From Vicugna vicugna (lineage: Eukaryota), in assembly GCA_013265495.1 (NCBI GenBank), contig PNXW01001157.1, forward strand, positions 45,241-65,240: a stretch of 20,000 nucleotides of DNA, written 5' to 3'. Positions within the stretch are counted from its first letter, which is position 1. Every line of letters starts with the position of its first letter. Both the position numbers and the translations under genes were made by a program. The notes below the pieces were generated by a model that saw only the letters and a list, made by a program, of their open reading frames with translations, did no database searches and was not told where the DNA came from. Positions 1 through 20,000 of the stretch are shown one piece after another.

Positions 1-85
1 CTAATAGGCTTGTGTTGTAGCCTTTGAAGAACATTCTTATTTCTTTCTTCCCTATCTGCATTAATGCTCCTAGGATGTTTCCCTG

Positions 86-619
86 TCTTTGGAAATTTGC
101 TAGAAGACTCATGGGGTTCAGCAGATAGTTGTCTTCATGGTGAAGATTCATAAGAGCGGTGCAGGAAGGATCCACAACAGGATTATAAGGGAAAAGATGC
201 AGACAGAGTTGGGGAGAATCCATGTCCAGGCTTCCTTATGCGCTCTCCCTCCCATGAGAGGTCACACAGAGTGCACGCTTCCCCCGGAACAAAATGCAGC
301 AACCTGTGTGCATTGTTTGTGCCCAGGGAAGTGTGTTAGGCACTCAGCACCTGACCTGAGGTTTTTACTGAGGACTGGCCACACAGATAACCTCTGTTTA
401 GAACATACTGGAATTCTAGACCTTAGGTAGAAAGTTGGAGGTCAGCATAGGACATACTGTTGCACAGACATTCTAGGGAGAATGAACTGACCTCATTAGT
501 TAACCGGTGACTAGGGGCACTCAGAGCCAAGTTTCCAGGGGCCAGATGAAGTCCGACCTTACAAGCAAGCCAATCTAACGATAGTCGTCTCTGAGCTTTT
601 GTGTTAACTCTTCCATACA
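86..619 (-). mobile_element. MER21-family (ERVL-class) LTR remnant
   Basis: Diverged match to recalled MER21-type consensus (gtcacacagag.., cccagggaag..ggtttttactg..ctggccac, ..tgttaactctt..aca terminus). Left boundary approximate. Confidence 0.65.
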
Positions 620-2001
620 CTACTTATATATAAAACCTTTTTTACTTTTAAAAAGACTTTGAAGTAATAACTGGTTAATATCTAGTGCAGTGAGATCATG
701 CAGCTTTATACTGATATGGATGAGCTTTAAGGCATTTGGGGGTTTTAAGTCTCTGCCTTTAGCTTTTGCTGCAATGATAAGAAAAGAAACTGGGGTTGAG
801 TCGGAATAATGTTCTTAGAGTTGAGAGTAGAGCAGGGAGGTGGTGGCATGTCCTGCTGCCCAGATGGCCATCATGCTACAGACCAAGGGGTCTGCTGTGG
901 TGAGCGTCTGGGTGAAGGTCTCCATCCTCTGGCTAGTTGGTTATTTCAGACCATAATTATCTCTACATAAAGCATACGTGCATATGCAGGAGTTCAGTAG
1001 TTTTTACTAAGCACTCACATGATGTTTAACATACTAACCGGTTTCACCCCTCCCTACAAGAACATTAACTGATCAGTCTTAGTCTGCTTTTAAACATGGG
1101 AAAGTCAAGGCTGTGTTTGTCATCTTGACATTTCCTATATTACTAATTCAGTCACCTCAGCGCTCAAGTTTCCTGTCTGTGAAGCACTTCCATAGCCTCC
1201 ACGTGTGGGCTTTGAGGTATATATGGCCTTCAAGAAAAACTTCTCATTTCAAAAAGTAAACTCCCTCTGTGTGGGTCCCAGAAGGGCTCCACTTTAGAGA
1301 GTGCTCTCAGGTGGTATGACTTTCCATCCCAGTGGCTGCTGAACAGTGAAGAAGAAAGGAATTCATTGACTCAAGGGCACAATCTAGAAGTTAAAGTTAA
1401 AGGGGGATGAATCCTATATAGTTCTCATTAACATATATAATCGATAATATTGTCTAGTTTTGTGGAATGACTTTATAATAAAATGCATAAGTTTTGAGAA
1501 CTTGTACCTGTGTTGGGGGCTCTTTGACATTTTCAATAGTTTACTTTCAGCGGCTATTTTATTTACTGACTTCCTACTAGGTTCACATGCTTGCTTTTCC
1601 CTCTCTTTTTTATTAATGTGCTGCTGCTGTTCTGCAATAGCAGTGGTTTGTTTGTATTTATTTTCAAAACCTTTGCATGGAAACGTATGGTTTTTGTCTT
1701 TTGTGTACGTGTGAATGAGCCACATGCTGATGTGTGCTTCTGAGTACCTTCACACATGTACTCTCTCTCTGCTTGCAAACAAAAATAAAGATAAGGGACA
1801 GTATTTATGTAAACTGGAATACTGATAAAGAATACATACCAAATATGTTTACACTTACATAGTATTTAAAGTTGGCTCAGTACATTAGACGGAGCTCATG
1901 TAGCATTTACTTAAATCTTGTGTTTTACTCTGGTTTTTCAAATGTGGGATGAATGGATGACATGGGATAAATATATACTCTGAAAAATATAAATAATTAT
2001 A

Positions 2002-2075
2002 CATACTCTGACAAATACATGATCTCATTACATCTCAAATTCATACTCTAATAAATACATGATCACATTATATCT
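2002..2075. repeat. Degenerate 40-bp-period direct repeat (2 copies)
   Basis: catactctgacaaatacatgatctcattacatct (2002-2035) versus catactctaataaatacatgatcacattatatct (2042-2075). Confidence 0.75.
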
Positions 2076-2343
2076 GATACATGACCATGAACTCTTTCCT
2101 ATGTTTTATCATTCAAACTCATGGCTTTCCAGTTTTGAACTTTATTTTTTCCTCATCGTAGGACATATAATCAAAGTAGTTTCCTAGAAATATTTTTTAC
2201 ATTTCTATTTTGGATTCTATATTCTAAAACCAAAGTGCCCATATCGAGACCTCAGGCTGATGTTTATTACAGCATAGTGATCACAGTCATCATTCAAGTT
2301 GTGCTTTGTGGATAATACACACATTATGGAGTTTTCTTTATAG

Positions 2344-2412
2344 AAAATGTGGAGGACAGCATGATGTAGAGGATGTACCTTTACACAGGTAAAGCTCAGG
2401 GTCAGAAGGAAG
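2344..2412 (+). pseudogene. KIF21A: KIF21A-like exon (~exon 25), disrupted
   Basis: tag|AA AAT GTG GAG GAC AGC (ENVEDS) ... GAG GAT GTA CCT TTA CAC ... TCA GGG TCA GAA GGA AG|gtaaga. It is 69 nt versus 61 expected from the recalled human peptide. TAG at 2367-2369 in the upstream frame and TAA at 2390-2392 in the downstream frame. Confidence 0.85.
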
Positions 2413-2775
2413 GTAAGAGAGTCTTCAGAAACTTAATAGATTTGACTTATTTCTTTAATATTTTAATATATTTAGCTGTTGCTTCAAACAATTACCTTAA
2501 GACAAATAATTTTGGAGTTTATGACTAAGTGAAGACACTAGAAACAGTAATAGGGAAACCAAACTGAGTAACGCTTAAAACTTCAAAACCTTTAAAAATA
2601 ATGGAATATTTAAAGAAGGAAAATGAATTATTTTAATTCGCTTTGATTTTGCATATTGTCATTCTGTGCTTTCCACAGGCATAGGAATTTTTTCCCCATA
2701 TTTATACTGAGAGAGGACATATAGTTTTCTATAGTAACTTCCCTTTTCATCTTGTGGTTAATTATTTGCTCATAG

Positions 2776-2830
2776 CTCACTGTCTTCAGACCTTATGAAG
2801 CTTTGTGGTGAAGTGAAACCTAAAAACAAG
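2776..2830 (+). pseudogene. KIF21A: KIF21A-like exon (~exon 26), intact 55 nt
   Basis: catag|C TCA CTG TCT TCA GAC CTT ATG AAG CTT TGT GGT GAA GTG AAA CCT AAA AAC AAG|gtaagg = [18 protein letters not shown]. Confidence 0.93.
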
Positions 2831-3469
2831 GTAAGGAGAACTGAAAACACCAGGTAACATTTTTACTGCTGTTCTTTATGATTTCTATTGAACACGGAGG
2901 GCGCAGGCTCGGCTCTTCACAGGCTCACAGGTGGGCATGCTTTCACCGAAGCTTTCACGTGTGAGAAAGTGTTTATTATACTCCCCTTAGGAAAAAAGAT
3001 ATATTGAACAGTTTCTCCTTTATGGGGCTTGTGACCTACTCTATTCTTGCACTTTTCCCACCAGATAAGATATGATTATGTAGAGCAATCTTTCAAAATA
3101 GTTAGATTGATAGGAGATTTTTGAAATTTAGCATTCTAATATGTTCTTCTGTGTTCCTTATTTATTTTGCTTAATTGTATCCAGAGGTGGTTTGAATAGG
3201 CCAACTCTTAATCATCATTTTCTTTTAAAAACTGAGGCTATAATGGATACTTGTGAAGTTTAAAAAATATGAGTAATATACTGTTAAATGTGTAAGATGC
3301 ACACGATATATTTCAGATTGCGTGTTGGCAGCTACTGGGTGAATTATAACCACCTTAAGATGTTTTTCGGATTTTTGCAGTGCTTGGTAAATATCTGTTG
3401 AATGAATGGGTGGAATCAGGACCTGAAAGATCAGTACTGTGCTAGTGGACAGGATGGACTTGAGGCCCA

Positions 3470-3745
3470 CAGTGGTCAGCCAGGTGATGCAAATGAATAT
3501 TTCAGTTGGATGTAAGACAATTAGCAGGGGTCAGCATGATTACCTGAAGAGGACATGCCCCATCTAAAACAAGTGCCACCACTCCACTATTGCTCATTTT
3601 TGCCATGATGGAATATGGGCCTTAGAGAAGCCTTAAATATGGATTTCAATGGAGAATTTCTTTATCTTTGAAATACTGGGCTTGCCAATCAAAAAACATC
3701 TGCAGGCTTCATGTGTGGTCCTTGAGCTACTGGCTTGGTAACGTG
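3470..3745. mobile_element. MER103-like hAT-Charlie DNA transposon remnant
   Basis: Motifs gatgtaagacaat, catgccccatctaaa, ttgccatg..gggcc..agagaagcc..ggattt and aaaaacatctgcaggc..gtggtcc match the recalled MER103C consensus. Confidence 0.6.
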
Positions 3746-4235
3746 TGGTTTGCGTCTTATTATTCTAAGTGACTAAGCAGAAGGTACCCAGACTCAAAGA
3801 AAACATTCTAGTGTAGTTTGGATCCAGTCTTAAGTGGGGGAGAAAATCTCTTAAGGTGACTTTGGGTCTCAGGCGCTGTGAAGGCCTCGCTATTCATGCC
3901 CTTGCAGGATGCCAGGGAGAGACGTGAAGGCGGGGCCTCAAGGCCGTCTCCTGAAAACACCACTGTGGTTAGGAAGCCCGGGGAAAGATGGTTCCACTGG
4001 CAGCGGAGAGGACTGGCAGGATGAAAGGCTGGCCTGCAGGGCTTGTTCTTCTTTCTTTTTCTTTTTGGCAGTGAAGGGTCATCATCTTTATCTGCATTGG
4101 ACACGATATTTAAAATATGAGTCTTGCCAGTTCTGAGAAGAGAAGTGCTCCCAAACCTGCATATACCCAGCACTCTCTTCTCCAAACACAAAGGAGCCCA
4201 CAGCATTTCTCAGAGGGATGCTCAGCTGACAGCGC

Positions 4236-4552
4236 TGAAGGCAGCCCCCGCCAGGGCCAGTGTGACAGTAATGAGAACCAGGAGACCCACAACGTCTTCT
4301 TCCTGTAGTTCTGGGCTCCGTGAGGTCTTGTTCAAGTGCTGCCTTCTAGCAAGCCTCGACCCTCCAGCCCGCCGCCCAGCTGGCCGCCCTCGCTGCTCCG
4401 CAGCTGCCGCTCGTCCTCGGGCTGCGCGGCGCTCGCGGGGGAGCCCGGCCGGCCGGGCCGGGAGGCTGCCAAGGGCGCGTGGCCGCTGGCGGAGGCGGGC
4501 CCGCAGGGCCCGGGGTGGGGGGATGCGGCGCTCGCTGCCCAGCCGGCTCCAC
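4236..4552 (-). pseudogene. TMEM163: Processed (retro)pseudogene of TMEM163 (zinc transporter-like protein), exon 1 and exon 2 coding part
   Basis: Minus strand gives (GTG)EPAG..GHAPLAA..QPEDERQLRSSEGGQLGGGLEGRGLLEGST*TRPHGAQNYRKKTLWVSWFS/ITVTLALAGAAF, matching recalled TMEM163 QLEEERQVRISESGQFSDGLEDRGLLESSTRLKPHEAQNYRKKALWVSWFSIIVTLALAVAAF. The exon1/exon2 junction (4355|4354) has no intron. Start codon is GTG, TGA at 4334-4332, 1-nt deletion near 4273. Confidence 0.9.
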
Positions 4553-4750
4553 TGCGCGGGGCGGCGGATCCCGGCAGCGAAGATGAGCCCCGTCAGAAGT
4601 GCGAGGCCCAGCGGCTGGGAGCGAGTGGAGGGACGGACCGAGGGCGGGCGGGCGCCCGGAGCGGAGGTGCGGGCTGCAGGGGGAAGGAGGGGGTTGGTGC
4701 GCGTCTGCAGGACTTACTTTCCGGAAGTTTTCTCGGGCTCTCCGCCACTC
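4350..4750. promoter_or_regulatory. CpG island-like segment (TMEM163 5' region carried by the retrocopy) with ETS and GC-box motifs
   Basis: Very GC- and CpG-rich (11 CpG in 4381-4440 alone) within AT-rich intron. CCGGAAGT at 4721-4728; overlapping GGGCGG at 4642-4651. Activity not demonstrated. Confidence 0.55.
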
Positions 4751-4785
4751 CTTTTGAACAGCAAAGATGCCTAAAAGGATCTCAA

Positions 4786-4925
4786 ATCATTTATTCTTCA
4801 CTCATTGAATAAACAAAATTGACTACGTATTTTAAATAGGTCTGTACCAGCACTATGTTAAATGCAGAGCATGCGAAGTTGAATACAGCAGGGTGTCTGC
4901 GCTCTAAAGGTTTATAATCTGGTAA
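4786..4925 (-). mobile_element. LINE-2 3' end fragment
   Basis: tcatttattcttcactcattgaataaaca..ctgtaccagcactatgttaaatgc..ctgcgctctaaaggtttataatctggt resembles the antisense L2 tail. Confidence 0.55.
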
Positions 4926-5334
4926 ACACCTTGATTATCTGTTAATACATTAGTGATAACAACCAACTGTAAGCATTAACAACAAGATAGTCCCTTGGTT
5001 TTCCAGGAGTATGGAAGGGAATGCTTATGGCGAACTTAGATTCTAGGGAAAATTAACCTTCTCCTGTCTCACCATGCTGCCAAAAGCTAGGATGGGCTGG
5101 CGCTGGCTATCCAGCAGGCAGATTAAACATCCAGTTAAGACATCAGGGGGCAGGGTCATGGAAATGGAGATACAAATATAAAAATTGATATTAAAATAAA
5201 ATTTACATTAAATAAATCATCTAAGCATGGGAAAAATCAAAATTTAGTTGAAAGTCCTTGCAATTATCTTTTGGTTTAATTTCTTTCTTTCTTTTTTTAA
5301 ATGAGACATCGAGGGAGCTGGCCATGAGTGTCAG

Positions 5335-5538
5335 GATAGCACAGTAATGTTAGAGGCAGATTGCCTAGTTTTGAATCTGACTTTGCCACTTACTGTGTGT
5401 CTTTGGACATTTAGCTTCTGTGTGCCTCAGTTTTCTCATTCGTGAATTGGGATGATGATAGTATATGCTAATGTAATAAAGTGTTTAGAACAATTTCTGG
5501 CATCCAATAAGCATAATCCAAATGTTGGCTATGATTAT
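5335..5538 (+). mobile_element. MIR SINE
   Basis: MIR core: ttgaatctgactttgccacttactgtgtg..ctgtgtgcctcagttttctcatt..aaagtgtttagaacaatttctggcat..aaatgttggctat. Confidence 0.8.
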
Positions 5539-5640
5539 GACCCCTGAAAGTCTTATCTGGCTGTAGCTCTGGCGTATCACTGTCTTACATGCTATGTTTG
5601 ACACACTTGCTAGGAAAAGACATGCTAAATATTTTTACCT

Positions 5641-5789
5641 TCAGACACTAATGCAGGAGATGCCTCCTTGCCTGGCCCTCTTACACCTGTTGTGGAAGGG
5701 CAAGAGATTGGAATGAATACTGAGACCAGCACTTCTAGGGAAAAAGAGCTCCCTCCCCTGTCTGGCCTCCCTTCTAAGGTAGGTAGCAT
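5641..5789 (+). pseudogene. KIF21A: KIF21A-like exon (~exon 27), 5'-truncated
   Basis: Translates to [49 protein letters not shown], ending AT|gtaagt. The expected N-terminal [20 protein letters not shown] part is absent. A usable acceptor tttttaccttcag ends at 5644. Confidence 0.9.
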
Positions 5790-6470
5790 GTAAGTCTGGC
5801 CCAGCTACACTAACTTCCTTTCTTTTGACTTTTTTTTAAAATATGCATGTTGCTAATTTCTTGCTTCTATTTTTTTTGATTATGTAAATAAGATCTTCAG
5901 TTTTCAAAGTAATTTCTGCTAGGTGTGGTGTCCCCTAATTTTTTGTATTCAGAATAATTTAAATGAGATGATTTTGTTGAAATTGCTTTGTCCTATTTCT
6001 AAGTTTTAGGGTCTTTCTTAAAGAGTATCATTTTTATTAAGGCTGAGATGTGAATTACAGACAAAATTTATTAAGAAACAGATGTAGGTTAAAGTGACAC
6101 CTATAAAGTCATTACATCAAACAGAACCTTGAAGACTCTTCAGTTTGCTCTAAATCATGGTACATCCTCATTCCAAGAGCCTGGGCAGGTGTGTAGACTT
6201 TTGCTGACACTGTTAAAGAAAAATGCAGATGTCGATTACCAGCTTAATACATTTTGAACTTTCCTAATTCTTTGTCTTGAAGACATTGCATGTCTGGATG
6301 TCTGGGATGAGTGTGTACACAAAGTAGTGTTATTGTGTTATTAAAGAGTTGAAGGAGGGAACATTTCACATCTATGATAATCTTAACAAGAAACATTCTA
6401 TTCAAAACAGATTTTATTTAGAAATTGTTCATAATTATCTTGAGAAGTAAGATTTTCCTACACAGGCCAG

Positions 6471-6490
6471 TGTGTGTGTGTGTGTGTGTG
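6471..6490. repeat. (TG)10 microsatellite
   Basis: Directly visible. Confidence 0.95.
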
Positions 6491-7606
6491 TTTGTTGTTA
6501 GTTGTATTAAAACTAGATCAGTCATTCACTGGTAAAGATGTTTAATGACTTTTTTTCAAACTAACTCTCACATATGATCTAGCAATTGATTTATTGGATG
6601 AACACATGACTGCACTGAGAAATAGTGCCAAAAAAGTGGCACACACTAGATGACTCTGCAGCTAATAAAATATAACAAACTCCCCACCCCTAGCTTGAAT
6701 ATCTCTTTCCCATAACTTTCTCCATCTTATGAAGGTATTTTCATTGTCTTCCATTCAGTAAGCCCATCTGCTACCTTTAGTTCTAAAATTAATTTTGATG
6801 GTGGCAGAACTTTCTCGCTGTGCTTGAGGTGGCCTGTGTGATTAACAATTGAATTTGCTGATACAGATTGCTAACCAGTATGGCTTATGGCTTCAGTGCT
6901 TTTTTGATAAGATAACAGTAGAAGAAATGCTTTTGGTGAAGATAGTGATACAGAACTGAGATCAGATTTTAGGAACTCCCAGGTGTTCAGCATTTAGTCT
7001 GTCAGATGAATAGAGACTTTTGGAACTTCAAGATTAAATCTATGACCTGGAATCCAGAATTCAGGTAATACCTTCTTTTTGCCTTTTTCTTTTAAATAAT
7101 GTTATCATTTGTGACAGGTTGTGGAAAATATCTTATACATACTGTCTCTTCACATGACTTATTTTCAAGTTTTCATCAATTAAGATGCTTGTGTAATTCT
7201 GTACATATTTAAGAGATGGTCATGTGCTGGTGCAATGACTCTTATAACCCATTATTGCAGGACTTTGATTGCATAAAATAAAATAATTTACCTAAGTAGG
7301 CCTTATGATTTAAGTGATGCAGAACTTCTAAAATGTAATTTCCTCTGGTTAGAAAAATCAGGCACATGAAGTTTAGTTACATTTAGTTCTCACTTTCAAG
7401 TAGGAATCACTGTAAGCCCATTCTGAGCATCCTGCTTTCTAATTCTTTAGTGTTTTTTTCCTTATTAGTATAACTAGCCAAGGACAGCAAAATTTCATTT
7501 CTTTCCAATTAAAGTTTATTACCACTATACACAAAAATCAGTCTTAAATTGTTAGTTACATAGCCATCATTCAAGAATATTTTTTAACCAAAATTTATAT
7601 AGCTAA

Positions 7607-8099
7607 TGTTGACTGAAATAAACATGCAGCCTAAAAGTTAAAAGTTATGTTTTATTTGTCGGGTGGGCTCGAGCCGGGATGACAGCCTCTCAGATCGCTC
7701 TGAGGGACTGCTTCCAAGAGGTAGGGGAGGAGCTAGGATATATAGAAGCTTTACAACAAAGACCAGGTAGTTGGAACAATAAAGGATTGCTTGTTATCTA
7801 AAGAGAATCAGGCATCTCAAGTTAAAGAATTTAGTGCTTTTCTATTTATGGGAGGAAGCAAACATTTGGGCTCACTGAATTCATTCCTTTGACAAGCACC
7901 TAGCTATCTAGGGCCAGTATCCTGTCCTTTCTTATTCTGAGTCTGCTTAAAGGGCACCATTGTGAGTGGCTGCAGGGGTGGGCTGCAGACCTGTCCCCAC
8001 TAGGGGGTGGCGGCAGCCGCTGATGACTTGGTTTCAGCATTCTATGTTTACTGATATGTTTGCAGTATTTTCATTCACATTGCAGTATTTTCGTTCACA
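7607..8099 (-). mobile_element. ERV1-class solo LTR (MER41-like, artiodactyl type)
   Basis: TG...CA termini flanked by a 4-bp target-site duplication CTAA (7603-7606 and 8100-8103). Minus-strand AATAAA near the 3' end (forward ttttatt ~7651-7657). GC-richer than flanks. Family name is from memory. Confidence 0.8.
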
Positions 8100-8591
8100 C
8101 TAACTAATACTTAAATACTAGTTAAGTAAAATATTTTTGTGCTCACCTGTAGTATTTTTTTCTGACTCTGTAATAATAATTAATTAAATTTTCTTGTTTC
8201 TCATATTCTGATATTCTAATATTTTTGTTCTTGCAAAATTGTAAAGGCTATTTTTCTTCAACTAAAGCAGTTTTAATCAAACTTAAGCACATTTAAAATT
8301 TAAAAATTCATGTTAGCCTTTTGGTCGTATAACATTGATGTTTATGTTCAAAGATAACAGGCTTATATATTTTTGATAAGATTGACAATTTAAAAATTAA
8401 ATATAAAGTTGTCAAGCTCCCATTAATTAAAAATAACTTGTGTAATATTTTCCTATCCCAGTTCTATCTTTTATTCCCTAGTAACCTTTTTCAAGTTCTA
8501 GTTAGTAATCTATTAAAAATTTAGGTTGAATTGCCAAAGTTATATGTATATATTTAAAATTAGATGACTACAGAATCTTTTTTTCTCTTAG

Positions 8592-8695
8592 TTCCAGACA
8601 GTCGTCTCTATCAGAAAAACCAACAGAGCCTCCCCCATAACAAGGAGAAGGGCATGTGAGAAAGCAGAAAACCCAAAGACCAAGGAACTAAGGCA
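8592..8695 (+). pseudogene. KIF21A: KIF21A-like exon (~exon 28), frameshifted, GC donor
   Basis: ttag|T TCC AGA CAG TCG TCT CTA TCA GAA AAA CCA ACA GAG CCT CCC CCA TAA (stop at 8638-8640). Homology continues one base shifted (ITRRRACEKAENPKTKELR). The phase-2 donor position reads ca|gccagt. Confidence 0.88.
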
Positions 8696-9752
8696 GCCAG
8701 TTGCTAATGCTTTTTTACCTGATAGATTGTATAAAATGTCAGCTGCACTGAGATGCTAAAGGACAGCAGTGGGATGATTTTCCATATTCAGGCTGGCTCT
8801 GGGATTTCAACTTAAGACAGTCAAATCAGCTGTTGGCTTGTGGTCTTCTGATTTTCTTGGCCACACACATACCTGTAAATAAAATCAAGCAACTGTTCCT
8901 GATCATGTACTCTGATTTATTTTTCAATTATTTGTGTATGTCATTGTAGAGCTAATATAGCTTTGAGGAGAGGTTTATTAAAACTGTAATTCAAATAGTC
9001 TTCTAGAAAACTTTGAAATTAACTTTGACTGTTATCTGATAAAACAGATATTGATTTCACCTCTTTAAATTGGTTGAAAAAAATCTAGTGTTAGAAGATG
9101 TGTGAGTTATGCTATTTTCTTGCTGTTCTCTCATATTTAAATGGATATTATCCTTAATTTTTTTTTTGTTGAAATCTTTTAAAAGCTATGTGTGTGTTTT
9201 CTGAGGGTTAACTTGTTTTGTGAGGCTTAGTCTGCCTAACAGTATATAATATAATCCGATGGTCCACTTACCTGGGCATTTGTAAATTGCAACACCACAA
9301 CATGCAGAAAGTTATAAATGGGTTAGAGCCACTGTACCTTTCTACCATGTGGCACACTCACCTTTCCCTCAGGTCACCTAACGAACTGCATATGGCAGGT
9401 AGATCCCTGACATGGTCTTGAGTGAGAGCATCAATGGCAATCTCCTTTCAAATATTGGCAAAGCTAAGTCTTCAATATAAAATAAATATAAAAAGAAGTC
9501 TTGGGGTATTTTCTATACCCAAGTGAATAACCTTATACCATCCCCCTACCCGTACCATCATGCACACTCTCTACTTTGACCACTGGTTTAGCTGCCTTGA
9601 ATATCATGGAAATTATTCTAATCATCCTTGCTTCCTGTATTTAAAGATGTAATTTACCTTTTTTTTTACTGAATCAAATATCTCAAGAATAATTAGGAGA
9701 TAAGGGATGGAGCAAATAAGTAATTTAAAAATAAATGAATTTATCAGTTGAA

Positions 9753-9812
9753 TAAGCAAATCCCTCTTAATCTCTCAGGGTCTGTTTCCTCATCTATAAA
9801 GTGAGCATCTTG
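9753..9812 (+). mobile_element. MIR core fragment
   Basis: cttaatctctcagggtctgtttcctcatctataaagtgag resembles the MIR core. Confidence 0.55.
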
Positions 9813-9939
9813 GTCTCAATTGTAAAATTGTATAATTTTAAATTTGCCTTGCTTTATTCATACCAAGTTTAGATTTCAGCAGACAGAACTTTTTCTTTAG
9901 TGCCATCTTGTGGCCAATGTAACACAATCCAATGGGAAA

Positions 9940-10135
9940 TTTTTTTTTCTTTACTTTTTTTATTGAGATGTGTCCATTTCCAGTGTAGAGCACAATTTTT
10001 CAGTTGTACATGAACATACATATATGCATTGTCACATTCTTTTTCACTGTGACCTACCACAAGATACATTTCCCTATGCTATGCAGCAGAATCTTGGTTA
10101 TCTATTCTACAGATGCCTGTCAGTATCTACAAATT
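9940..10135 (-). mobile_element. 5'-truncated LINE-1 3' end, antisense
   Basis: T-rich tail (9940-9961) followed by ttcagttgtaca..tatatgcatt..cacattcttttt..ttccctatgctatgcagcagaatcttggttatctattcta, typical of an artiodactyl L1 3' UTR in reverse. Confidence 0.7.
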
Positions 10136-10286
10136 TGAAAAAATTTTAATTAAATTGTTCAGAGTGCATTTTATCTTATGAGAAAGAAAGGAAAGAAAGA
10201 ATTCTTTAATGAGAACCTTTTTTTTAAAAAAGCATATTTCTTATAACATTTCTAACAAGTAAAAGCCAACAAAGCCGCCTACTTAA

Positions 10287-10433
<147 letters not shown>

Positions 10434-11212
10434 TAAGTTATTATGTAAAAGAGTCCCAACTATTGATTATAATATTCCTGAGCTTTTCAATACAATCTTG
10501 AGAGAACATTTAGCCCTCTCTCTGTGTGGGAGATGGAGTCTGACTTGTGAACTCGTGCTGTACTTTATGTGTTTTTCCAGTGGGGAATGAACCATATACA
10601 CAAAATTAGATGAATTTATTTTCCTACTGAACATTATTCCCTGCTGTAGATTTGCAATGCTCCACTTCAGCACTTGCCTTGCCTTTTCCTTTTGCAGGTC
10701 AATTAGAATTGAAATATCTTTGCGATCACTTGAAGTTGAAATTTCTTGGGATTCTTCACCTTCGTTGAGCCCATAAAAGCCTCTAATCCGGCTAGCCTGT
10801 ATTGAAGAGGCAAACTATTTTACCTTTGGTGGATATAACATCTTACAGAGACCGTGTCACATATGTGTAACATGTTACCATTTGGTTGTTCCACAAATCC
10901 ACCACAAAACTTGAGTCATTTTGTTCTTGGAAAAAAAGAGTACCATTATGGGTGGAGGGGGTAGAACTCAGGGTGGACTGTTGGGGAAGAAAATTTGGAG
11001 GGCTATGGAAAATATAATTTTCATCAAATTTGAAGTGAAAAAATATTCCCACATTGAGCCAGAATCTCTCTTGTAAGAATTTCATAGTAACAGTGTTGCC
11101 ATAAGGTATTTATTAACTCTGACTTGTCTGCTTTGATTTTGAATTATAACATTGTGGATGTATGTCCTTGATGTCCAGTCTCCCACACCAATTTGTTTTC
11201 TATGCTATGATT

Positions 11213-11258
11213 TTCATATATATATATGAATCGTTCATATATATATATATGAACGATT
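11213..11258. repeat. Adjacent perfect AT-core palindromes
   Basis: ttc(at)6gaa at 11213-11230 and aatcgttc(at)7gaacgatt at 11229-11258. Confidence 0.9.
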
Positions 11259-12551
11259 TTGAAATTTACAGAATACTGCCTGGTATGTTTAGATCATGCT
11301 AAATGGCTCTGTAGACTTAGAGAGATACAACATTATTTTGAAATAATCTTTAATCTACTTAATTTATGGGTAAAATTCTTGATTAGATTTTAATATAGTT
11401 TAATCAGTAGATGATATGTCCTTTAAAATGATCTAGTTAGGTGATGTTTTTAAATTTAAAAACAAATATTAAAAGATTCTTGAACATTGTTAAATCATAC
11501 CTCTCAGTTAATTGAGAAAAGAGTAGAACATTAGGAATGTCTTTAGGAAGTCCATTTTCACTAGTGATATGAAGAATTGCTAAATTTTGTCTACCTTGTA
11601 TTTACAGTAGTAACATTTTGTCAGTCTTTTGGTAATCGTGACAGTCTAATCATAGTTCCATGTTTTTTACTGAAATAGTTTATGAGCTGCCAATCATTTG
11701 ACTGCATTACCATCTCTATAAAATAAAACTTAGAATGACTTACTACCCCAAACCCTCACCTACCTTTTGAATCAATTTCTTTGGGCCCCTTTTTGAGACT
11801 AGCATATTTCACCTGCTAGAAGTTAGGTCCCACACATTGTTTCTGATGACGTGACATGCGAGCACCCACTCTGTTCTCATCCTTCCCAAGCCTACTGTAT
11901 GACACTACATGCTAAATATTCAGTATCATAATAACCAGCCTTACTGTCAGTCCTGGAGAACTGAGGGTCAGGCTGACAGGAATGGCTCAGCTATTTTTAA
12001 AATCCCACCAAAACCTCCCCGCTGTTACTGAGGGACTGGCTAGGCAGAAGGCCACCATGTTTTTGAGATGAGTTAAATCAAAGTTTATTAAATTTTGACT
12101 GATTCGCTCCCCACGCATTCATGTATTTGTGTAACTTTCATATGAGACTCTACAGTAATTATCAAGAGGAATGAAATTCATTAATGTTTAGTGAAGTGGG
12201 AAAAGTTTCCTGGTACTAGTCAGATTAAATAGCACCTTGAAGTGATGGACTTCAGTTACCTGACGGTGTTCCTCTTCAGGGCCTACATTTTAGAAAGCAA
12301 GGACAGATAGGTTCCATGAATCAGTAATAGACCCCCCCAAATCTTGGTAGAAAACATAAGAACAAAATATTTTAGCTAATTTAGGTGTCTATTGAACTTG
12401 CTGATATCCAGCTCAAAAAGGAAAGCAGGGCCCACTAAAGGAAATGTTTGCTGTGTTTCTATTATTCATACCAATGCATCAGCTCAGCCTCAGTGTCCGC
12501 CTGTTACCATCTGTAGTCTTTCTCCTCACAATTCTGACTCTTTCCTTGTAG

Positions 12552-12590
12552 GTCTGATGACAGTGACTCTTCTCTGTCGGAGGTACACGG
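12552..12590 (+). pseudogene. KIF21A: KIF21A-like cassette exon (~exon 30), 39 nt, donor lost
   Basis: ttccttgtag|G TCT GAT GAC AGT GAC TCT TCT CTG TCG GAG GTA CAC GG|ggactt = SDDSDSSLSEVH. The donor dinucleotide at 12591-12592 is GG rather than GT. Confidence 0.87.
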
Positions 12591-13246
12591 GGACTTTCTC
12601 TCTTTCCTACTTTATGGCCTTTCAGTGATGTTTTAAAATGCCTTCCTAGAAACTTTAAGCAAGTCTCATTTTTGTTGCATTCATAAATGATAAATGTCAG
12701 TGCACTAATATTTTTAACCATAAATTTTAATATATATTAAATATATTTTTATGATCATAACTCTCAAAGTAGTGGCAGATTTTTTTGTATAATAACATAA
12801 AAAATTGTGCTATTTGTTTTCTGTCTATAACCTAAAAGTTTTCTTTAAAAGAAATTAAGTTCTAAGAAAATTAATTTCCTCAATGAATATTGCCCCCTCA
12901 AAGTGTGGGAGATGAATAAGGTAGTTTTCGTGTTGGTTTATCGATCTTAAATAAGCAGTTTATGGCAGACTTTGTGATGAAAAAAAGATATGCAAAGGGA
13001 AAAATGATACTATGATACCTAAAATATAGAAAGAAATAGAAAGAAAAAGTTTTTAAAAAATAATAAATATTTTAAACTAGTAAATGCTATTTTAGAAATA
13101 ACAATGTTGCATTTTTTTCACATTATGGATTTTTTTGGACCCTTAATTTATTTTTCTTTCTATCATTTCCTCTTTCTACTAATCATTTTGTCTCCTTTCT
13201 CTTTGCACTTTTCCCCATGTTTTATGGCCATTTTCCTGATCATCAG

Positions 13247-13261
13247 TAGATCCTCCAGAAG
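13247..13261 (+). pseudogene. KIF21A: KIF21A-like microexon (~exon 31), 15 or 12 nt via NAGNAG acceptor
   Basis: Long pyrimidine tract, then cag|TAG|ATCCTCCAGAAG|gtaggc, encoding (S)RSSR(R). This is the peptide between SEVH and GIINP in recalled KIF21A. Confidence 0.85.
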
Positions 13262-14539
13262 GTAGGCAGGGGAAGGGAGAGGAAATTAATGTCATTCAAA
13301 GAATTCCAAGATTTTACTGGTTTTGCTTGGAACAAAAATAAGCATTATTTTTTCCTTCAGATTAGATATATTGAGTAAGTTTGCAATATTTAACCTTAAC
13401 TTAAACTATTTTAAAGTTGATTTACATATTTCAAAATGTGAATAGATTAATTTTACTAGAAAAGAAATACCATGGATGTATGTTTCCAATTTCTGTTTCT
13501 TTCTATTATCTTTGATATAAGGTAATCTCTATAAAATATTAACCCTAATATTCTGAATATATGAGAGTGTTTTTCAGTATCTAATGAATAAAATTCTCAA
13601 TTTACTGTTGAAATTGTTTTTCTTCAAAGGTCTGAAAAAATAAAAGACGTAAGAATGAAAAAGAGACATCCTCTAGGGCTGCGCCATACATTAAATCACT
13701 GGAGGCAAATATTTACTTTTGTAATATTACAACCTTTGACATGACAGAATTGTGTTGGATGTTATGTCATGAGGGGAACACTTAATAGACTCTTAGGATA
13801 AAGAGAGTAATCTGAATGAAGGCAATTTTTTGGAGACATAATATTATATAACTGAGGGTGCTGTTTAGTTTTTTCTCCCTTAGGATGACTTGAGTCATTA
13901 AATGCAGATCATGCAGCTCTTAGGCTGTTAACGTGAAGTTTTTTTCTTTATAATCAGCTTCTTAGATTATGCATACATACATACATATTCTGTTTTTGAA
14001 GTAACAGTAGCAGTTGACTGTGTATTAGATCATAGTTTTCAACATGTGAAGCAATAGTTACAATTTGATGGCTTCAGTTCATAGCTTTTAAACCCCACAT
14101 CAGTTAAGATTTTGAAATGGCAGATTCAGACTTTTGAGAAGGTTTTGCTCCCATTTCAGTTCTGGTTAAATTCTTAGATTACCAACAAGTTACTGAGCAT
14201 TAGTTTCAAAAACCTCAAATTGATGCATGTATGCAAATAATACTTTGGATTTTGTCATTACACGTCCATGTGATTACAGTTCCTGGTATTATTTCTAGTA
14301 ATGAGGAACTTCCTTCATTTTTTGAAATCATTATAACTAAACCCTAAAAATAAAGGATTTTTAAAAATCCTGAGCCTAAATTTACTTCCGTTAAATTTCT
14401 GTTCATTGGCCTTTCATCAGCCTTCTTGAGCCATATTAGAATTAATCCAGTACATCTTTTTATAGGTATCTGACAGATCTTTTAAATATTCAGCCATTTA
14501 ACTGTGCTTTTGTATGCTCTCTGTAATGAAAGCTCTCAT

Positions 14540-14760
14540 ATCATCTCAGAAGTTTTAGATTCATCTGTTCCTAATAAGATATAGTCTAGGATCTGCTTCC
14601 ACAGTTTTGGAAAATCTCCCATTTTTCAGAGTTCTTCTTAGAATGTGGCATCCGGAGCTCAACCTCACTCCAGATGTGGCCTCAGCAGAATATAGTAACT
14701 CTCTTGCTTTCTTCTGAAATATTTACCTCTATTGCACAAGTCATTGAAAATGTTGGTAGG
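14540..14760 (-). mobile_element. L3/CR1 LINE fragment
   Basis: ttcttagaatgtggcatccggagctcaacctcactccagatgtggcctcagcagaatatag resembles antisense L3/CR1 sequence. Boundaries approximate. Confidence 0.45.
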
Positions 14761-15779
14761 GGAATCAAAAATTGTTAAGCCACTGATCTCATATCAATAA
14801 ACAAGCTTCTTTAGCTTGTAAATTGAGTTAAGTCCCTTTCCTACTTGGGGCATTCTCTTCTCTCTTCAACTTAAATTTTATGTTTAAATTTTTTCCATTG
14901 AATATTTTAGTGCTAGGTATGTACTTAAATGACCTTTGTTTGTAATTTTTTCTAGGCAGTGCATTGCTTTAATATATCAATTTAATACACAGGCCATGTC
15001 TGTCTTTGTTTCTGAGGACAGATTGACTAGGCATTGAAGGCCTCTTTCCAGACTGGCAGGAACATGGACCCTTTAGGTGTGATTCCTCAACCACTGGTGG
15101 AACTACCTTCCTACAATAGGGTTTTACTTACTTCATCTGCAAGGATATCATTTGAAAAGCTTTTTGTATGGACCTTTTTGGAGTCAACATATGTTGTGAA
15201 TATGACATTCCCCTAATATGCTGCCTGTTAATTCTACAAAGAACTTCCCCATGAGATTAGTGAGCTCATGTTATCTCTTATAGATGAACATCTAAGTGTT
15301 TATAATTATGTAATGTTTTCCTCTGTGAGACTCAACAAGAGTTACCCATCTGTAATCTCTGAAATCCACTATGTTTCTCCTTTCTAGAAAACTGGGTCTA
15401 TGTGTTTTATCCCCTTTATTGATCCTTTTAGTGTCCCAACAATGATTTTGCCTCCACAATGGTGTATACTTTCAAAACCTTGTGACATAATGTTTCAGAA
15501 ACAGAAGTACTGGAACTCATTGAACAAGTCTTCATTATCAGTTCTAACTTATCTTGGGCTTATATTTCTTCTGAATTATCCCTGCCCCTTGCATCATGAA
15601 GGTTGTTCTCACTCATCAAGAAGAAGGAAACAGACAGCTTAGTTTCATGCCTGCACCTGCCCTCATATTATGCCACCTGTCTTAGATGATGGGCATATTT
15701 CAGCATAATTTTTCTTATGCTCTGAGCAAAGTTACATTCATCTTATATACTTATCATGTCTTAATTCACACTCATCTTT

Positions 15780-15915
15780 AGTCTTCCTCTTACATTTATT
15801 TCAGTTCAGATCCTGTCTTAAATTCCTTTAGGATAGGGACAGTGTTTTGATAAACTTTCTATTTCCATAGTTCATAGTCCAATGGCATAAAGCAGAAACT
15901 TCAGAAATATTAAAT
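15780..15915 (+). mobile_element. LINE-2 3' fragment
   Basis: ttcctttaggatagggacagtgttttg..atagtccaatggcataaagcagaaacttcagaaatatt resembles the L2 3' end. Confidence 0.45.
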
Positions 15916-16545
15916 TTATCAGAAAGCTCCCTAAAGAGCCTCACTGTTCTCTTAAAATTTTACTCTTAAAATTTTTTTCTTTTACACTTTTAAGAGTTTT
16001 TAAAGTTTTTGCTATTTTTGAGCCATTCTCCCTTTAGAATTTCTGTCTATGTAAATATTCATATATTTCTTCAAATTGGTTTGAAATTTGCTTTCGTAGT
16101 ATTTTAGGTGGTATGTGTTACGCTTTCTCCAGGATGTATTTTTGGACATAGAATTATATTCTAGCCTGATAGAGAGTCACATCTTCCAGTCAGCCATCAT
16201 TTATACTTTCTTACCTGTCAGAATTCACTATACCTGAACAGCTCCCAATATTACTTCATGAAATTTGAACAAGATGAAATTACTAATAAGAAAATCCGGA
16301 TGCAGCACTGGCTTTGCTCCTTGCAGAAGGCACCTGCTAACTGACACCTGATTAGTCGGTGCACGCCATCACTGCTTTTACTGTTTCACACTGTGTCCCT
16401 TTGCTTAAAAAATGAGACAAGGAGCAGTATGGATTTAATTACTATTACTTGGAAAGACTTCTTAAAGTCAGAGAAAAAAAATTAAAGTAGTTTCATGATA
16501 CAGCTACTGAAGTAAAGCTTTGTTTTTTTTTTTCTCCCAGCTCAG

Positions 16546-16679
16546 AGGCATAATCAACCCACTTCCAGCTTCAAAAGGAATTGGAATGCCCCACTTCGGT
16601 GTGTGCACGTAGCTGAAGGGCACACACAGCTGTGCTCTGTGTGAGGGCTACTGATGCTCTTCTCTTCACTGGATCAAAG
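16546..16679 (+). pseudogene. KIF21A: KIF21A-like exon (~exon 32, start of WD40 domain), frameshifted
   Basis: ctcag|A GGC ATA ATC AAC CCA CTT CCA GCT TCA AAA GGA ATT (GIINPLPASKGI), then PLRCVHVAEGHT and AVLCVRATDALLFTGS in shifted frames. It is 134 nt versus 137 expected; the read-in frame hits TAG at 16610-16612; donor gtactg. Confidence 0.9.
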
Positions 16680-17028
16680 GTACTGGTTGTTGTGTCATGT
16701 GGGTACATAACAGATCTTTTAAAAAATGATTACGTTGAGCTGGTTTTGAAAAAAATGTCAAACTGCTTAAGATTCATAGGAATCTGAGAGATAATCTGGT
16801 TCAATCCCTGAATTATATAAAATACAAAATCACTGCATGGTTGGTAAGAAAGTAAAACCTCTTTTGATGCACTGTGAGTAGAATGGCACGGGGATACATC
16901 TCTCTATGGTAATTGAGCATCTAATGCATGCAAAGCCCTGAGCTTAGTAATGCAGGCTGCGTAAAAATCTATGAAAGGCCATTGCAGAATACAGTGTGAC
17001 AGAGAGAGTAAGGTGGGTAGCGGCCACC

Positions 17029-17258
17029 ATTTCTTGAGCAGTCCCTGTATGTCAGAGGCTGTACTGGACAGTATGCAAATTACATCTCACTTATTTCTCA
17101 CAACAACCCCAATGACGTACATATTGCATCCTCATTTTACAGATGAAAAAATTGAAAATTTAAGAAGTTAAATAATTTCCCCAGCTACACTTAGAAAGTG
17201 GAGGAGCCAGGATTGGAAACCTAGGTCTACTCGTCTCCAAACCTGCACTCTTAACCCC
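17029..17258 (-). mobile_element. MIR SINE, antisense, near full length
   Basis: ttgagca..tatgtcagaggc..tctcacaacaacccc..cctcattttacagatgaaaaaattga..gttaaataatttcccc..gtggaggagccaggattggaaacctaggtct..ctcttaacc. Confidence 0.85.
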
Positions 17259-17494
17259 TTTGGTAAAATGGCAGGCAACTAAAAAAATCAACTATAAATG
17301 ATTGGAAAATTTATAGACTAGGTTTTGGGGTTTCAGAAAAGGGAGAGATTATGCCAAGCTGTAAAAAATAAGGAAAGCTTTGATAAGGAGGTGTTTAAGA
17401 TGAGTCTTACAGGATTGTTGCTATTGACAGGTAAGGACAGGCAACTAAGGTCAGAGAAGAGCAGAAGCAGAGACGTGGAGGCAGATGTGGATTT

Positions 17495-17626
17495 GGGGGG
17501 AGGGGGGTTGTATAGCGCAAGTGGTAGAGCGCGTGCTCAACATACACGATGTCCTGGGTCCAACCTCCAGTACTTCTCCTAAGCAGAAATAAATGAATAA
17601 ATCTAATCCTTAAAAAAAAAAAAAAA
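17495..17626 (+). mobile_element. tRNA-derived SINE resembling camelid Vic-1
   Basis: G-rich head, Pol III A box (tagcgcaagtgg), degenerate B box (gggtccaacc), ccagtact..aaataaat body and A15 tail (17612-17626). Confidence 0.8.
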
Positions 17627-18383
17627 GGAATTTGGAAATTAAATCCTATTGAGTTGAAATGTAGAATATACATGACAATGGGCAATGAGACTAGGAAGGT
17701 GAGAAGGAAGCATGTATAAGAATTTGGGGAGCTAGTTAAAGATTTTTAGCATTTAGGGATGTTCCAAGACTCAGTTTAATCAGAAAAATTTTTGCTCATT
17801 TTCTATGAGGGAAATAAAAGAGTTTAGCTTATGCGTTGTTAATAATTGCAAGCAATTCCCCTATTAAAAAAAATTTACTCTACAAAAACATAATTTTCTA
17901 ATGATTCAAGTTAAATTGATTTCTCCAGTATAATTACACATTCAGCATGTCAGAAAAACAAAATAAAATAGTTTTGTGATTATGTTTTTTGAGTCAAAGA
18001 TAAAATCCATCCATAAGTGACTCCTGGAAAGAAACGTATGTGTATTTATGAGTATGGAGTGTTGTCAGGAGGTAAGAGCAGATTTTGAAATGGCTGATTT
18101 AGGATGGCTGTTTAAAATTCAGGGGCAATTTGGAGCAAGACTCTTTTCACATATCTATTTCAAAATTTTGTGTAATTACTTTTTTAATACCGTGTGATGC
18201 ATCCCTAGCTTTCATCCAATCCTTTACACCTGCTTTGCCCTTGAACCTGTGGCAAGTTAGAAGTTAGGAGTTAGGATGCCTGTTTCAGGTTAATGGAATA
18301 ATTACTGTTTCCTTATCTATTTTTTTCTCATAAAAGTCTAATTTAGTTCATATTGACAGTATTGCCTCTTTTTTTTGTTTTAG

Positions 18384-18564
18384 ATTGTACTTTTAAAGTA
18401 TGGAATCTGGTGACTGGGCAGGAGATAATATCACTGAGGGGTCATCCCATCAATGTCATATCTGTAAAATACTATAATTATACAAGTTTGGCCTTCACAG
18501 CATCAGCATCTTATATTAAGTTGTGGGATATCAGAGACTCAGCAAAGTGCATTCAAGTGCTAAT
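18384..18564 (+). pseudogene. KIF21A: KIF21A-like WD40 exon (~exon 33), open but diverged, 181 nt
   Basis: ttttag|AT TGT ACT TTT AAA GTA TGG ... CTA AT|gtaagt = [60 protein letters not shown]; 13 of 60 residues differ from the recalled human sequence. Overlaps ORF 18353..18568. Confidence 0.93.
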
Positions 18565-19630
18565 GTAAGTAACTTAAAGAGAAGCAGCATAAGGGGCAAA
18601 TAGCCCTTGTTTATAAATATGAGAAAAGATAGGTCTGTGAATGCATTTTTGTTTATTTATACCTGTCTACTTGCAAGTAACATTACAGTGTTTACAGTAA
18701 GAATGCCAATAAAGTAAGGTTTAAAAACCTTTTGAGAAAATAATATATAAAAGCTCAATATTAAACAGGAAGGGAGAAGTCCTATTTGATCTGTGACTAA
18801 GTACACATTTCATATTTCCTCCCTAACCAAAGGAATTAAATTTTCATAGTATTTATTACTTACATAGTTACATGCTTCAAATGAATACCACTCCTTGGAA
18901 AATGGCTCAAATCACCATAGTAGATGGTGAAGAAGTACTTTCAACACTTAATTAGCATGTATTGAGTAACTGAGAGGGTTTTTTTGTTGTTTTGTTTTGT
19001 TTCTTTAGGACTTAACACTGCCTTGGGGTTAGTCCCTATTTTGTAACTTTAGGTTGTGTAGGGTGATTGGAAGATGAGTTTGTTTTCTGTGTTTCTTATC
19101 ATATATGTCTTTAAAATGTAGAGCAGATGATTCTTTTTGTTGTAAGATTGATGAACTGTTCTACATAATTAAAATTAAGGTGAACTCTGTTGGTAGTAAG
19201 AGCAGGGAGCATAGGAGTGGTTAGTTTTTACAAATTTGTAGAGTGGGGTTATTAACATTAAATTCTATTTTGCATTTTGAGAATTACTAATTATTTGCTG
19301 TATTGAATACAAGTCTCTTGAGGGAAATTTTGTAGAAAAAGAACACTGTTATCTTATGTTAGAAATTTACCCATCCAGTTGACTCAGTAAAATCTAATTT
19401 GAAAAGATTGATTATAACTTGATATTTTAGAAGTTTACTGAGAAAATGTTCCCAAATTTAAAAATACATTTGCTGCTTAGAACTTGGCTGAGGAAATAGA
19501 AGTAAGTTATGGTTAAGCAATAGTAACTAATCCATATATGATTGGGTTAAAGTAAACAAAAACTGAAAATAATTTTAAAATTCCTCAGTGTCTTTAACTG
19601 AAAAGGGCAAATCTTACATATGAAAGGAAT

Positions 19631-19987
19631 ATCAGTAGGCTCGCCCCTCAGGGGGCTTCTGGAAACTGCAGAAGAATGAATTACCTTTGTGGCACTGCAT
19701 CACTTGTTGAGTTTTTAAATCATTGTCATCTAATCTTTTCTGAATCATACTGAAGTCATCCTTAACTCAGGACTCAGAATTCCTAGTGTTTAGGAGACTT
19801 GCAAATTAAATCAGTAGGCTCGCCCCTCAGGGGGCTTCTGGAAACTGCAGAAGAATGAATTACCTTTGTGGCACTGCATCACTTGTTGAGTTTTTAAATC
19901 ATTGTCATCTAATCTTTTCTGAATCATACTGAAGTCATCCTTAACTCAGGACTCAGAATTCCTAGTGTTTAAGAGACTTGCAAATTA
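19631..19987. repeat. 179-bp-period tandem duplication, 2 copies
   Basis: atcagtaggctcgcccctcaggggg...gacttgcaaatta starts at 19631 and 19810; I see one mismatch (tttaggagac versus tttaagagac). Confidence 0.95.
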
Positions 19988-20000
19988 GGAGTTTAAAGCC

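Follow-up and report, generated by a model that had tools for sequence, protein, structure and literature searches.

Introduction

Duplicated pseudogenes lying in segmental duplications have been catalogued for human, and most human pseudogenes of this type were disabled at about the time of duplication, according to the part of that catalogue on which we draw (Khurana et al., 2010; PMC2978362). By the convention given in the same part, a segmental duplication spans at least 1 kb at an identity of at least 90% (PMC2978362). Here we describe a copy of the kinesin gene KIF21A in 20,000 nucleotides of Vicugna vicugna DNA (referred to as the window), positions 45,241–65,240 of contig PNXW01001157.1 in assembly GCA_013265495.1. 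The window is the final 20 kb of this 65,240-bp contig, referred to as C586, and the assembly comprises 2.03 Gb in 12,405 contigs. Other C-numbers denote further contigs of the same assembly. Coordinates of pseudo-exons are window positions, and those given with C586 are positions on the whole contig.

KIF21A belongs to the kinesin-4 family and is the CFEOM1 gene. A preliminary description, made from the letters of the window, had recognized an intron-containing KIF21A copy with several inactivating lesions. It favored a segmental duplicate decaying neutrally in a camelid and raised, as the alternative, the loss of a gene essential in mouse; this essentiality is upheld by the literature.

We are highly confident that the window represents a non-functional, unprocessed, partial pseudogene fragment of KIF21A in a repeatedly duplicated camelid block. 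The favored explanation of the preliminary description holds, given an intact parent gene, the colinearity with it and the ratio of nonsynonymous to synonymous substitution (dN/dS). It can be refined in that the copy is a fragment only, covering residues ~1038–1405 of 1653, and is one of several secondary copies in a mosaic duplication block.

Results

Extent of the KIF21A copy

The last 23.6 kb of the contig (C586 41,619–65,240) are colinear in blastn with the parent gene at C10921:12,422,543–12,444,903, introns included, in blocks of 82–88% identity, and the copy runs along the minus strand of the parent. With tblastn, the KIF21A residues matched on C586 are 1040–1404 only. Motor domain and promoter are missing from the fragment, and hardly anything of the WD40 propeller is present. 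Its 5' breakpoint lies 37 bp inside the intron following the exon for residues 1004–1037, and the contig end falls within the intron preceding the exon for residues 1404–1466. In the first 41.6 kb of C586, blastn matches to the parent region run through dispersed repeats only, and the rest is other duplicated DNA and repeats. The window is AT-rich (GC 0.29–0.45) except for one GC-rich kilobase at 4001–5000.

Homology to the parent extends through the introns, as in a duplicated, unprocessed pseudogene. Every intron of the covered part is present and alignable to the parent, which sets the copy apart from a processed pseudogene. It also differs from a functional KIF21A orthologue, as its open reading frame (ORF) is incomplete and disrupted, and the copine and ABCD-type neighbors flank the gene on C10921, not C586. 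KIF21B was considered as the parent and was ruled out by the colinearity with the introns of KIF21A.

The translation of 18383–18565 matches KIF21A of many vertebrates, with identities of 67–80% (best 80%) among the best 120 of 3008 hits. Among these 120 matches, no database protein carries the translation of this pseudo-exon. The piece is therefore KIF21A-like, yet absent as such from the database proteins listed.

An intact KIF21A in the same genome

A search for a second, intact KIF21A found it on C10921, on the minus strand at ~12.412–12.483 Mb. Every exon for residues 15–1637 was found there with a primate KIF21A query (assembly search, then tblastn), and every exon for residues 15–1653 with Camelus dromedarius KIF21A isoform X9 (1653 aa; tblastn). 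The parent is identical to isoform X9 at 1621 of the 1653 residues; the remainder comprises exon 1, codons interrupted by introns and a small number of substitutions. For one parent exon, identity to KIF21A is 100% in Camelus dromedarius, C. bactrianus and Vicugna pacos and 97% in ruminants and whales, which confirms that the genome belongs to a camelid.

The neighbors were assessed by Pfam copine and ABC_membrane_2 matches only. ABC_membrane_2 matches lie on one side of KIF21A, at C10921:12,642,811–12,645,171, and copine matches on the other, at C10921:12,057,822–12,089,926. The intact gene thus sits between a copine gene and an ABCD-type gene; we take the neighbors in human to be CPNE8 and ABCD2, as the preliminary description named them.

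These results bear on the alternative that the window holds the sole KIF21A of the species and that the gene was lost in a camelid. Apart from the lesions themselves, nothing speaks for such a loss, and it is refuted by the complete, frame-intact KIF21A on C10921, which stands in conserved gene order and has exons ~98% identical to annotated camelid KIF21A. Moreover, the window copy is limited to residues ~1040–1404. The suggestion of a gene loss was therefore not borne out, and the chance that it is correct is vanishingly small.

Lesions of the pseudo-exons

We aligned the window to the parent and called the lesions base by base (Table 1). Relative to the intact gene, the copy has one in-frame stop, three frameshifted exons, one truncated exon and two lost donor sites, as a pseudogene would. 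In the pseudo-exon at 2344–2412, a 1-nt deletion at 2361, a 3-nt insertion at 2366 and a 6-nt insertion at 2387 leave the parental frame reading ENVEDSMM and then a stop. The deletion in front of 5636–5789 took the acceptor and approximately the first 55 nt of the exon, and the remnant also has an in-frame 3-nt deletion at 5734. The pseudo-exon at 8592–8695 shows a 3-nt deletion at 8614 and a 1-nt deletion at 8630, after which a stop follows in frame.

The stops or frameshifts that the preliminary description had placed in the exons at 2344, 8592 and 16546 are all present in the alignment to the parent. The same goes for the 5'-truncated exon that it had put at 5641 and for the non-GT donors at 8696 and 12591, and each of its coordinates falls within a few bases of the aligned one. 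Its count of 13 changes among 60 aligned residues in the WD40 exon was reproduced against primate KIF21A, and likewise against dromedary KIF21A (78.3% identity). In the codon alignment of this exon to the parent, 14 of 14 changed residues are derived on the copy.

Table 1. Features of the KIF21A copy and of the DNA inserted in it. Coordinates are window positions unless C586 is given.
Feature	Position	Strand	State or evidence
3' 20 kb of intron-containing partial KIF21A duplicate	1..20000	+	Colinear blastn blocks
Pseudo-exon upstream of the window	C586 ~42264-42428		In-frame stop, AAG to TAA; alignment to parent
Pseudo-exon, residues ~1093-1113	2344..2412	+	Frameshift (-1, +3, +6 nt); TAG in parental frame; AG/GT kept
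Pseudo-exon, residues ~1114-1132	2776..2830	+	Undamaged: open frame, 3/57 nt changed, splice sites kept
Processed retrocopy (713 bp) in pseudo-intron	4002..4714	-	Absent from parent; gap between parent blocks
5'-truncated pseudo-exon, residues ~1150-1202	5636..5789	+	145-bp deletion; GT donor kept
Solo-LTR-like repeat, ~491 bp	7609..8099	.	TG..CA ends, CTAA on both sides; absent from parent
Pseudo-exon, residues ~1203-1238	8592..8695	+	In-frame stop; donor 8696-8697 GC, parent GT
Pseudo-exon, residues ~1239-1281	10304..10432	+	Undamaged: open frame, 5/128 nt changed, splice sites kept
Small alternative pseudo-exon (parent SDESDSS...)	12552..12590	+	Frame open; donor 12591-12592 GG, parent GT
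Pseudo-exon, residues ~1299-1344	16546..16679	+	1-nt deletions at 16588, 16625, 16675; stop in parental frame; AG/GT kept
Pseudo-exon, first WD40 blade, residues ~1345-1405	18384..18564	+	No indel; 21/182 nt changed; AG/GT kept
179-bp tandem duplication, two copies 99% identical	19631..19987	+	At contig end

Authenticity of the damage

Some of the damage recurs in the paralogue on C9881. The 145-bp deletion is identical there, as compared over short pieces. In the exon at 16546, the second and third 1-nt deletions are also present in C9881, and the first is private to the window. In the exon at 8592, an A-to-C change at donor position +3 is common to C9881, and the remaining lesions are private to the window. 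Four lesions are thus identical in a copy 7% diverged, and these cannot be assembly errors. Meanwhile, 19 of 24 listed public runs, from eight studies and under three organism labels, hold 52–65% of the 31-mers sampled from window 9000–18900; a paralogue 7% away would share ~0.93^31, or roughly 10% of them, and one of the runs may be the source of the assembly. No RNA run stands out among those listed, and a single run that may be RNA contains 6% of the 31-mers, which is uninformative on expression.

We therefore weighed the possibility that the contig is an assembly artefact, either a haplotig or an error-ridden duplicate of the true locus, whose lesions are sequencing errors. Indeed, this is a small, unplaced contig of 65 kb with a terminal tandem duplication seen in no other copy, and several of the indels fall within short homopolymer runs. 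However, a substitution divergence of 10% over 20 kb is far above the level of haplotypes or errors. The insertions of a retrocopy and a long terminal repeat (LTR) are absent from the parent, and the different flank joined at 41,619 is common to four other contigs. The four lesions found in the 7%-diverged paralogue and the presence of over half of the 31-mers in the 19 runs also speak against an artefact, which we hold to be extremely unlikely. The haplotig in particular was ruled out by the 10% divergence and the different flanks. Judging from these comparisons, the damage is old and not an assembly error.

Divergence, constraint and age

Outside the exons, copy and parent differ by a p-distance of 0.103 and a Kimura two-parameter (K2P) distance of 0.112 over 20,464 sites. 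The exonic difference amounts to 99 of 1028 aligned nucleotides (9.6%), as against 10.3% in non-exonic DNA. Over 285 gap-free codons, of which a few align poorly where one exon is truncated, pairwise dN/dS is 0.60 (dS 0.135, dN 0.081). We polarized the residue differences with KIF21A of Bos, Pan and Balaenoptera. Among the 44 polarized differences, 37 are derived on the copy, one is derived on the parent and six are ambiguous. A pairwise dN/dS near 0.6 together with a strongly constrained parent branch would imply a value near 1 on the branch of the copy. The substitution pattern of the copy is consistent with neutral decay, and dN/dS against the intact copy, a check that the preliminary description had proposed, agrees with it.

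Generic mammalian substitution rates are 1–2.2 × 10^-9 per site per year, at which K = 0.112 would correspond to a copy age of roughly 25–56 million years. Three residues provide a second indication of age. At residue 1177 (four aligning non-camelid species) and at residue 1243 (three aligning non-camelid species), the copy keeps the outgroup state, and a derived residue is common to C. dromedarius, C. bactrianus and Vicugna. At residue 1321, the V of the copy is separated by one step from I in the outgroups and by two from R in camelids. These ancestral-like states point to a duplication that predates the split of Old World from New World camelids, whose last common ancestor one published abstract places at more than 11 million years ago (PMC13751797).

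A family of related copies

The genome contains at least five paralogous KIF21A-like fragments. A piece of 301 bp around the WD40 exon occurs at eight places: the window, the parent, C10023, C9881, C4396, C8145 and, in part, C5729 and C1036. The K2P distance is 0.07–0.09 among the window, C9881 and C4396, and 0.09–0.14 from these three to the parent; to the group of C8145, C1036 and C5729, which we call older, it is 0.11–0.15. In the WD40 exon, all copies have derived substitutions in common relative to the parent, as displayed across four to five copies. By BLAST, the window is 87–88% identical to the parent, 92% to C9881 and 93–95% to C10023.

The non-KIF21A side of the junction (C586 41,619) is common to C3947, C9881, C3083 and C6005, and sequence further upstream is common to C3083, C9881 and C3947. 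Junction and flank in common indicate one primary insertion, which was re-copied with its flank. The C8145 copy also has the exon for residues ~1539–1615, so the original duplication extended further 3' than C586. Many copies lie on small contigs or at contig ends, and C9881 ends inside its own copy.

Outside the window, C586 1–41618 combines further duplicated blocks with long interspersed repeats in a mosaic. Positions 634–10000 correspond to C7773:4829290–4838695 at 89%, and 1–6085 to C1057 at 98%, which represent a different duplicated block. Positions 30589–41618 are common to C3083, C9881, C3947 and C6005 at 87–90%.

We also notice variation among the copies themselves. Window 326–2452, including the pseudo-exon at 2344–2412, is present in the parent and missing from the C9881 and C3947 copies, in which homology jumps from 325 to 2453. 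At a distance of 8–15 kb from their KIF21A fragments, two contigs have a copine-domain exon (Pfam positions 1–54 of 61; C8145:1100995–1101177 and C4396:24497–24658). It corresponds to the exon that the true copine neighbor has at C10921:12089765–12089926, and it is inverted in C8145. Some copies of the block thus also carry a piece of the neighboring gene.

At the contig end, window 18794–19808 is 99% identical to C2032:38978–39995 and to C7925:43139–44156, far closer than to the other copies. These matches may represent overlapping ends of contigs, haplotigs or duplicates of very recent origin. The 179-bp unit that is tandemly duplicated here is single-copy in the parent, C9881, C4396 and C8145, and its doubling may have arisen very recently or be an artefact of the assembly end.

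Insertions within the copy

The 713-bp insert matches three pieces of C8191 (1974334–1974706, 1980351–1980473 and 1983216–1983383) that are separated by gaps of 2.7 and 5.6 kb and span 9 kb. Each source piece is bounded by AG/GT, and the insert has an A-rich tail at ~4040–4062 on the minus strand. These features identify it as a processed retrocopy, antisense to KIF21A, of a transcript with three exons. The retrocopy is common to the C9881, C6442 and C3947 copies, which makes it older than the secondary duplications. Four of its ORFs gave no Pfam family, and for its 163-aa ORF none of 8000 scored protein candidates reached E <= 0.01.

The ~491-bp repeat at 7609–8099 has copies of 88–94% identity at 23 further places in the genome. 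Its absence from the parent would place its insertion after the duplication. Another member of this repeat family, at C8145:1116719–1117211, sits within the WD40 pseudo-exon on that contig; the alignment between the C8145 copy and the window is broken there, at window 18396–18402.

The 5' 385 bp of the retrocopy (4330–4714) form a CpG island by composition, with a GC content of 0.78 and an observed/expected CpG ratio (o/e) of 0.86. In the C9881 paralogue (C9881:11856400–11857300), the corresponding values are 0.75 and 0.91, and the region of source exon 1 on C8191 has 0.79 and 0.92. The composition is thus kept in C9881 despite a difference of ~17% from the window segment, and the block has persisted and been copied again at least five times. 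Both points would suit the idea that the fragment or the block is functional, as a non-coding RNA or through a chimeric transcript from the island, possibly antisense to the KIF21A-like exons. On the other hand, the substitutions and indels of the pseudo-exons look neutral, the whole window has no match to any Rfam family, and neither Pfam families nor related proteins were found for the ORFs of the insert. A high copy number is typical of duplication-prone regions, with no need of selection. We regard such a function as very unlikely. Still unlikely is the more specific proposal that the KIF21A fragment is a passenger in a camelid-specific, repeatedly copied block and that the island acts as an active promoter, unmethylated in the germline, from which a non-coding or chimeric transcript, present in multiple copies, could be read antisense across the KIF21A-like exons.

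Discussion

On the basis of these comparisons, we propose the following course of events for the KIF21A pseudogene fragment. A block of KIF21A of at least ~28 kb, starting 37 bp downstream of the exon for residues 1004–1037, within the following intron, and reaching at least the exon for residues 1556–1623, would have been copied to a new site in an ancestor of living camelids. With no promoter, motor domain or coiled-coil stalk, it could not have given a KIF21A product from the start. As it never included the 5' half of the gene, the copy was probably without function as soon as it had been duplicated. It may then have drifted, gaining the retrocopy, the 145-bp deletion and frameshifts, before being re-duplicated, non-KIF21A flank included, to five or more places. 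The window copy would subsequently have gained the solo LTR, more frameshifts and the two donor-site losses.

Several observations weigh against this interpretation. The first coding exon of the parent (14 aa) was not located, and none was sought; the 80-kb parent region holds 58 N. The lesions private to the window (at 8614, 8630, 8696, 12591 and 16588, and the indels at 2361–2387) are supported by the assembly alone. The frames at 2776–2830, 10304–10432 and 12552–12590 are open and most splice sites are retained, which is the chance expectation for short exons at ~10% divergence. Finally, a CpG-island composition retained in two copies is unexpected for long-silent DNA. Something in the block could still be active, and the island is the sole hint of activity in it.

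Our findings amount to a negative result with respect to gene loss: an essential neuronal kinesin is not lost in camelids, and the lesions belong to a dead fragment. In camelid studies, the KIF21A-like fragments, of which there are at least five, can mis-attract short reads and capture probes for the exons of residues ~1038–1620. They also mark a duplication block that breaks assemblies, as several copies end contigs. For the camelid stem lineage, the block offers a modest, dated archive of duplication, retroposition and LTR insertion events. In a full-text literature search, we found no published description of a camelid KIF21A pseudogene among the papers listed.

Compared with KIF21A itself, the copy is homologous over residues ~1038–1405, that is, the linker after the regulatory coiled coil and the first WD40 blade. 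It lacks the motor domain, the stalk and six of the seven WD40 blades, has several frameshifts and stops, and lies outside the CPNE8–KIF21A–ABCD2 neighborhood. As for processed pseudogenes, the insert at 4002–4714 is of that kind, whereas the KIF21A copy itself is unprocessed.

The closest resemblance is to the human duplicated pseudogenes in segmental duplications, as far as the consulted part of that work describes them (Khurana et al., 2010; PMC2978362). There, too, introns and colinearity with the parent are kept alongside frameshifts and stops, the pseudo-exons have diverged about as much as the pseudo-introns, and the pseudogene itself may be re-duplicated. The window copy was probably likewise disabled at about the time of duplication, as the same part of the work concludes for most (PMC2978362). 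With respect to the segmental duplication convention, the block is long enough; the pair with the parent, at 87–88%, lies below 90% identity, whereas the younger paralogue pairs, at 92–95%, lie above it. Unlike the cases described there, the host is a camelid and not human. The window therefore holds an ordinary duplicated pseudogene fragment of the kind catalogued for human, peculiar only in belonging to a camelid block that was re-copied several-fold.

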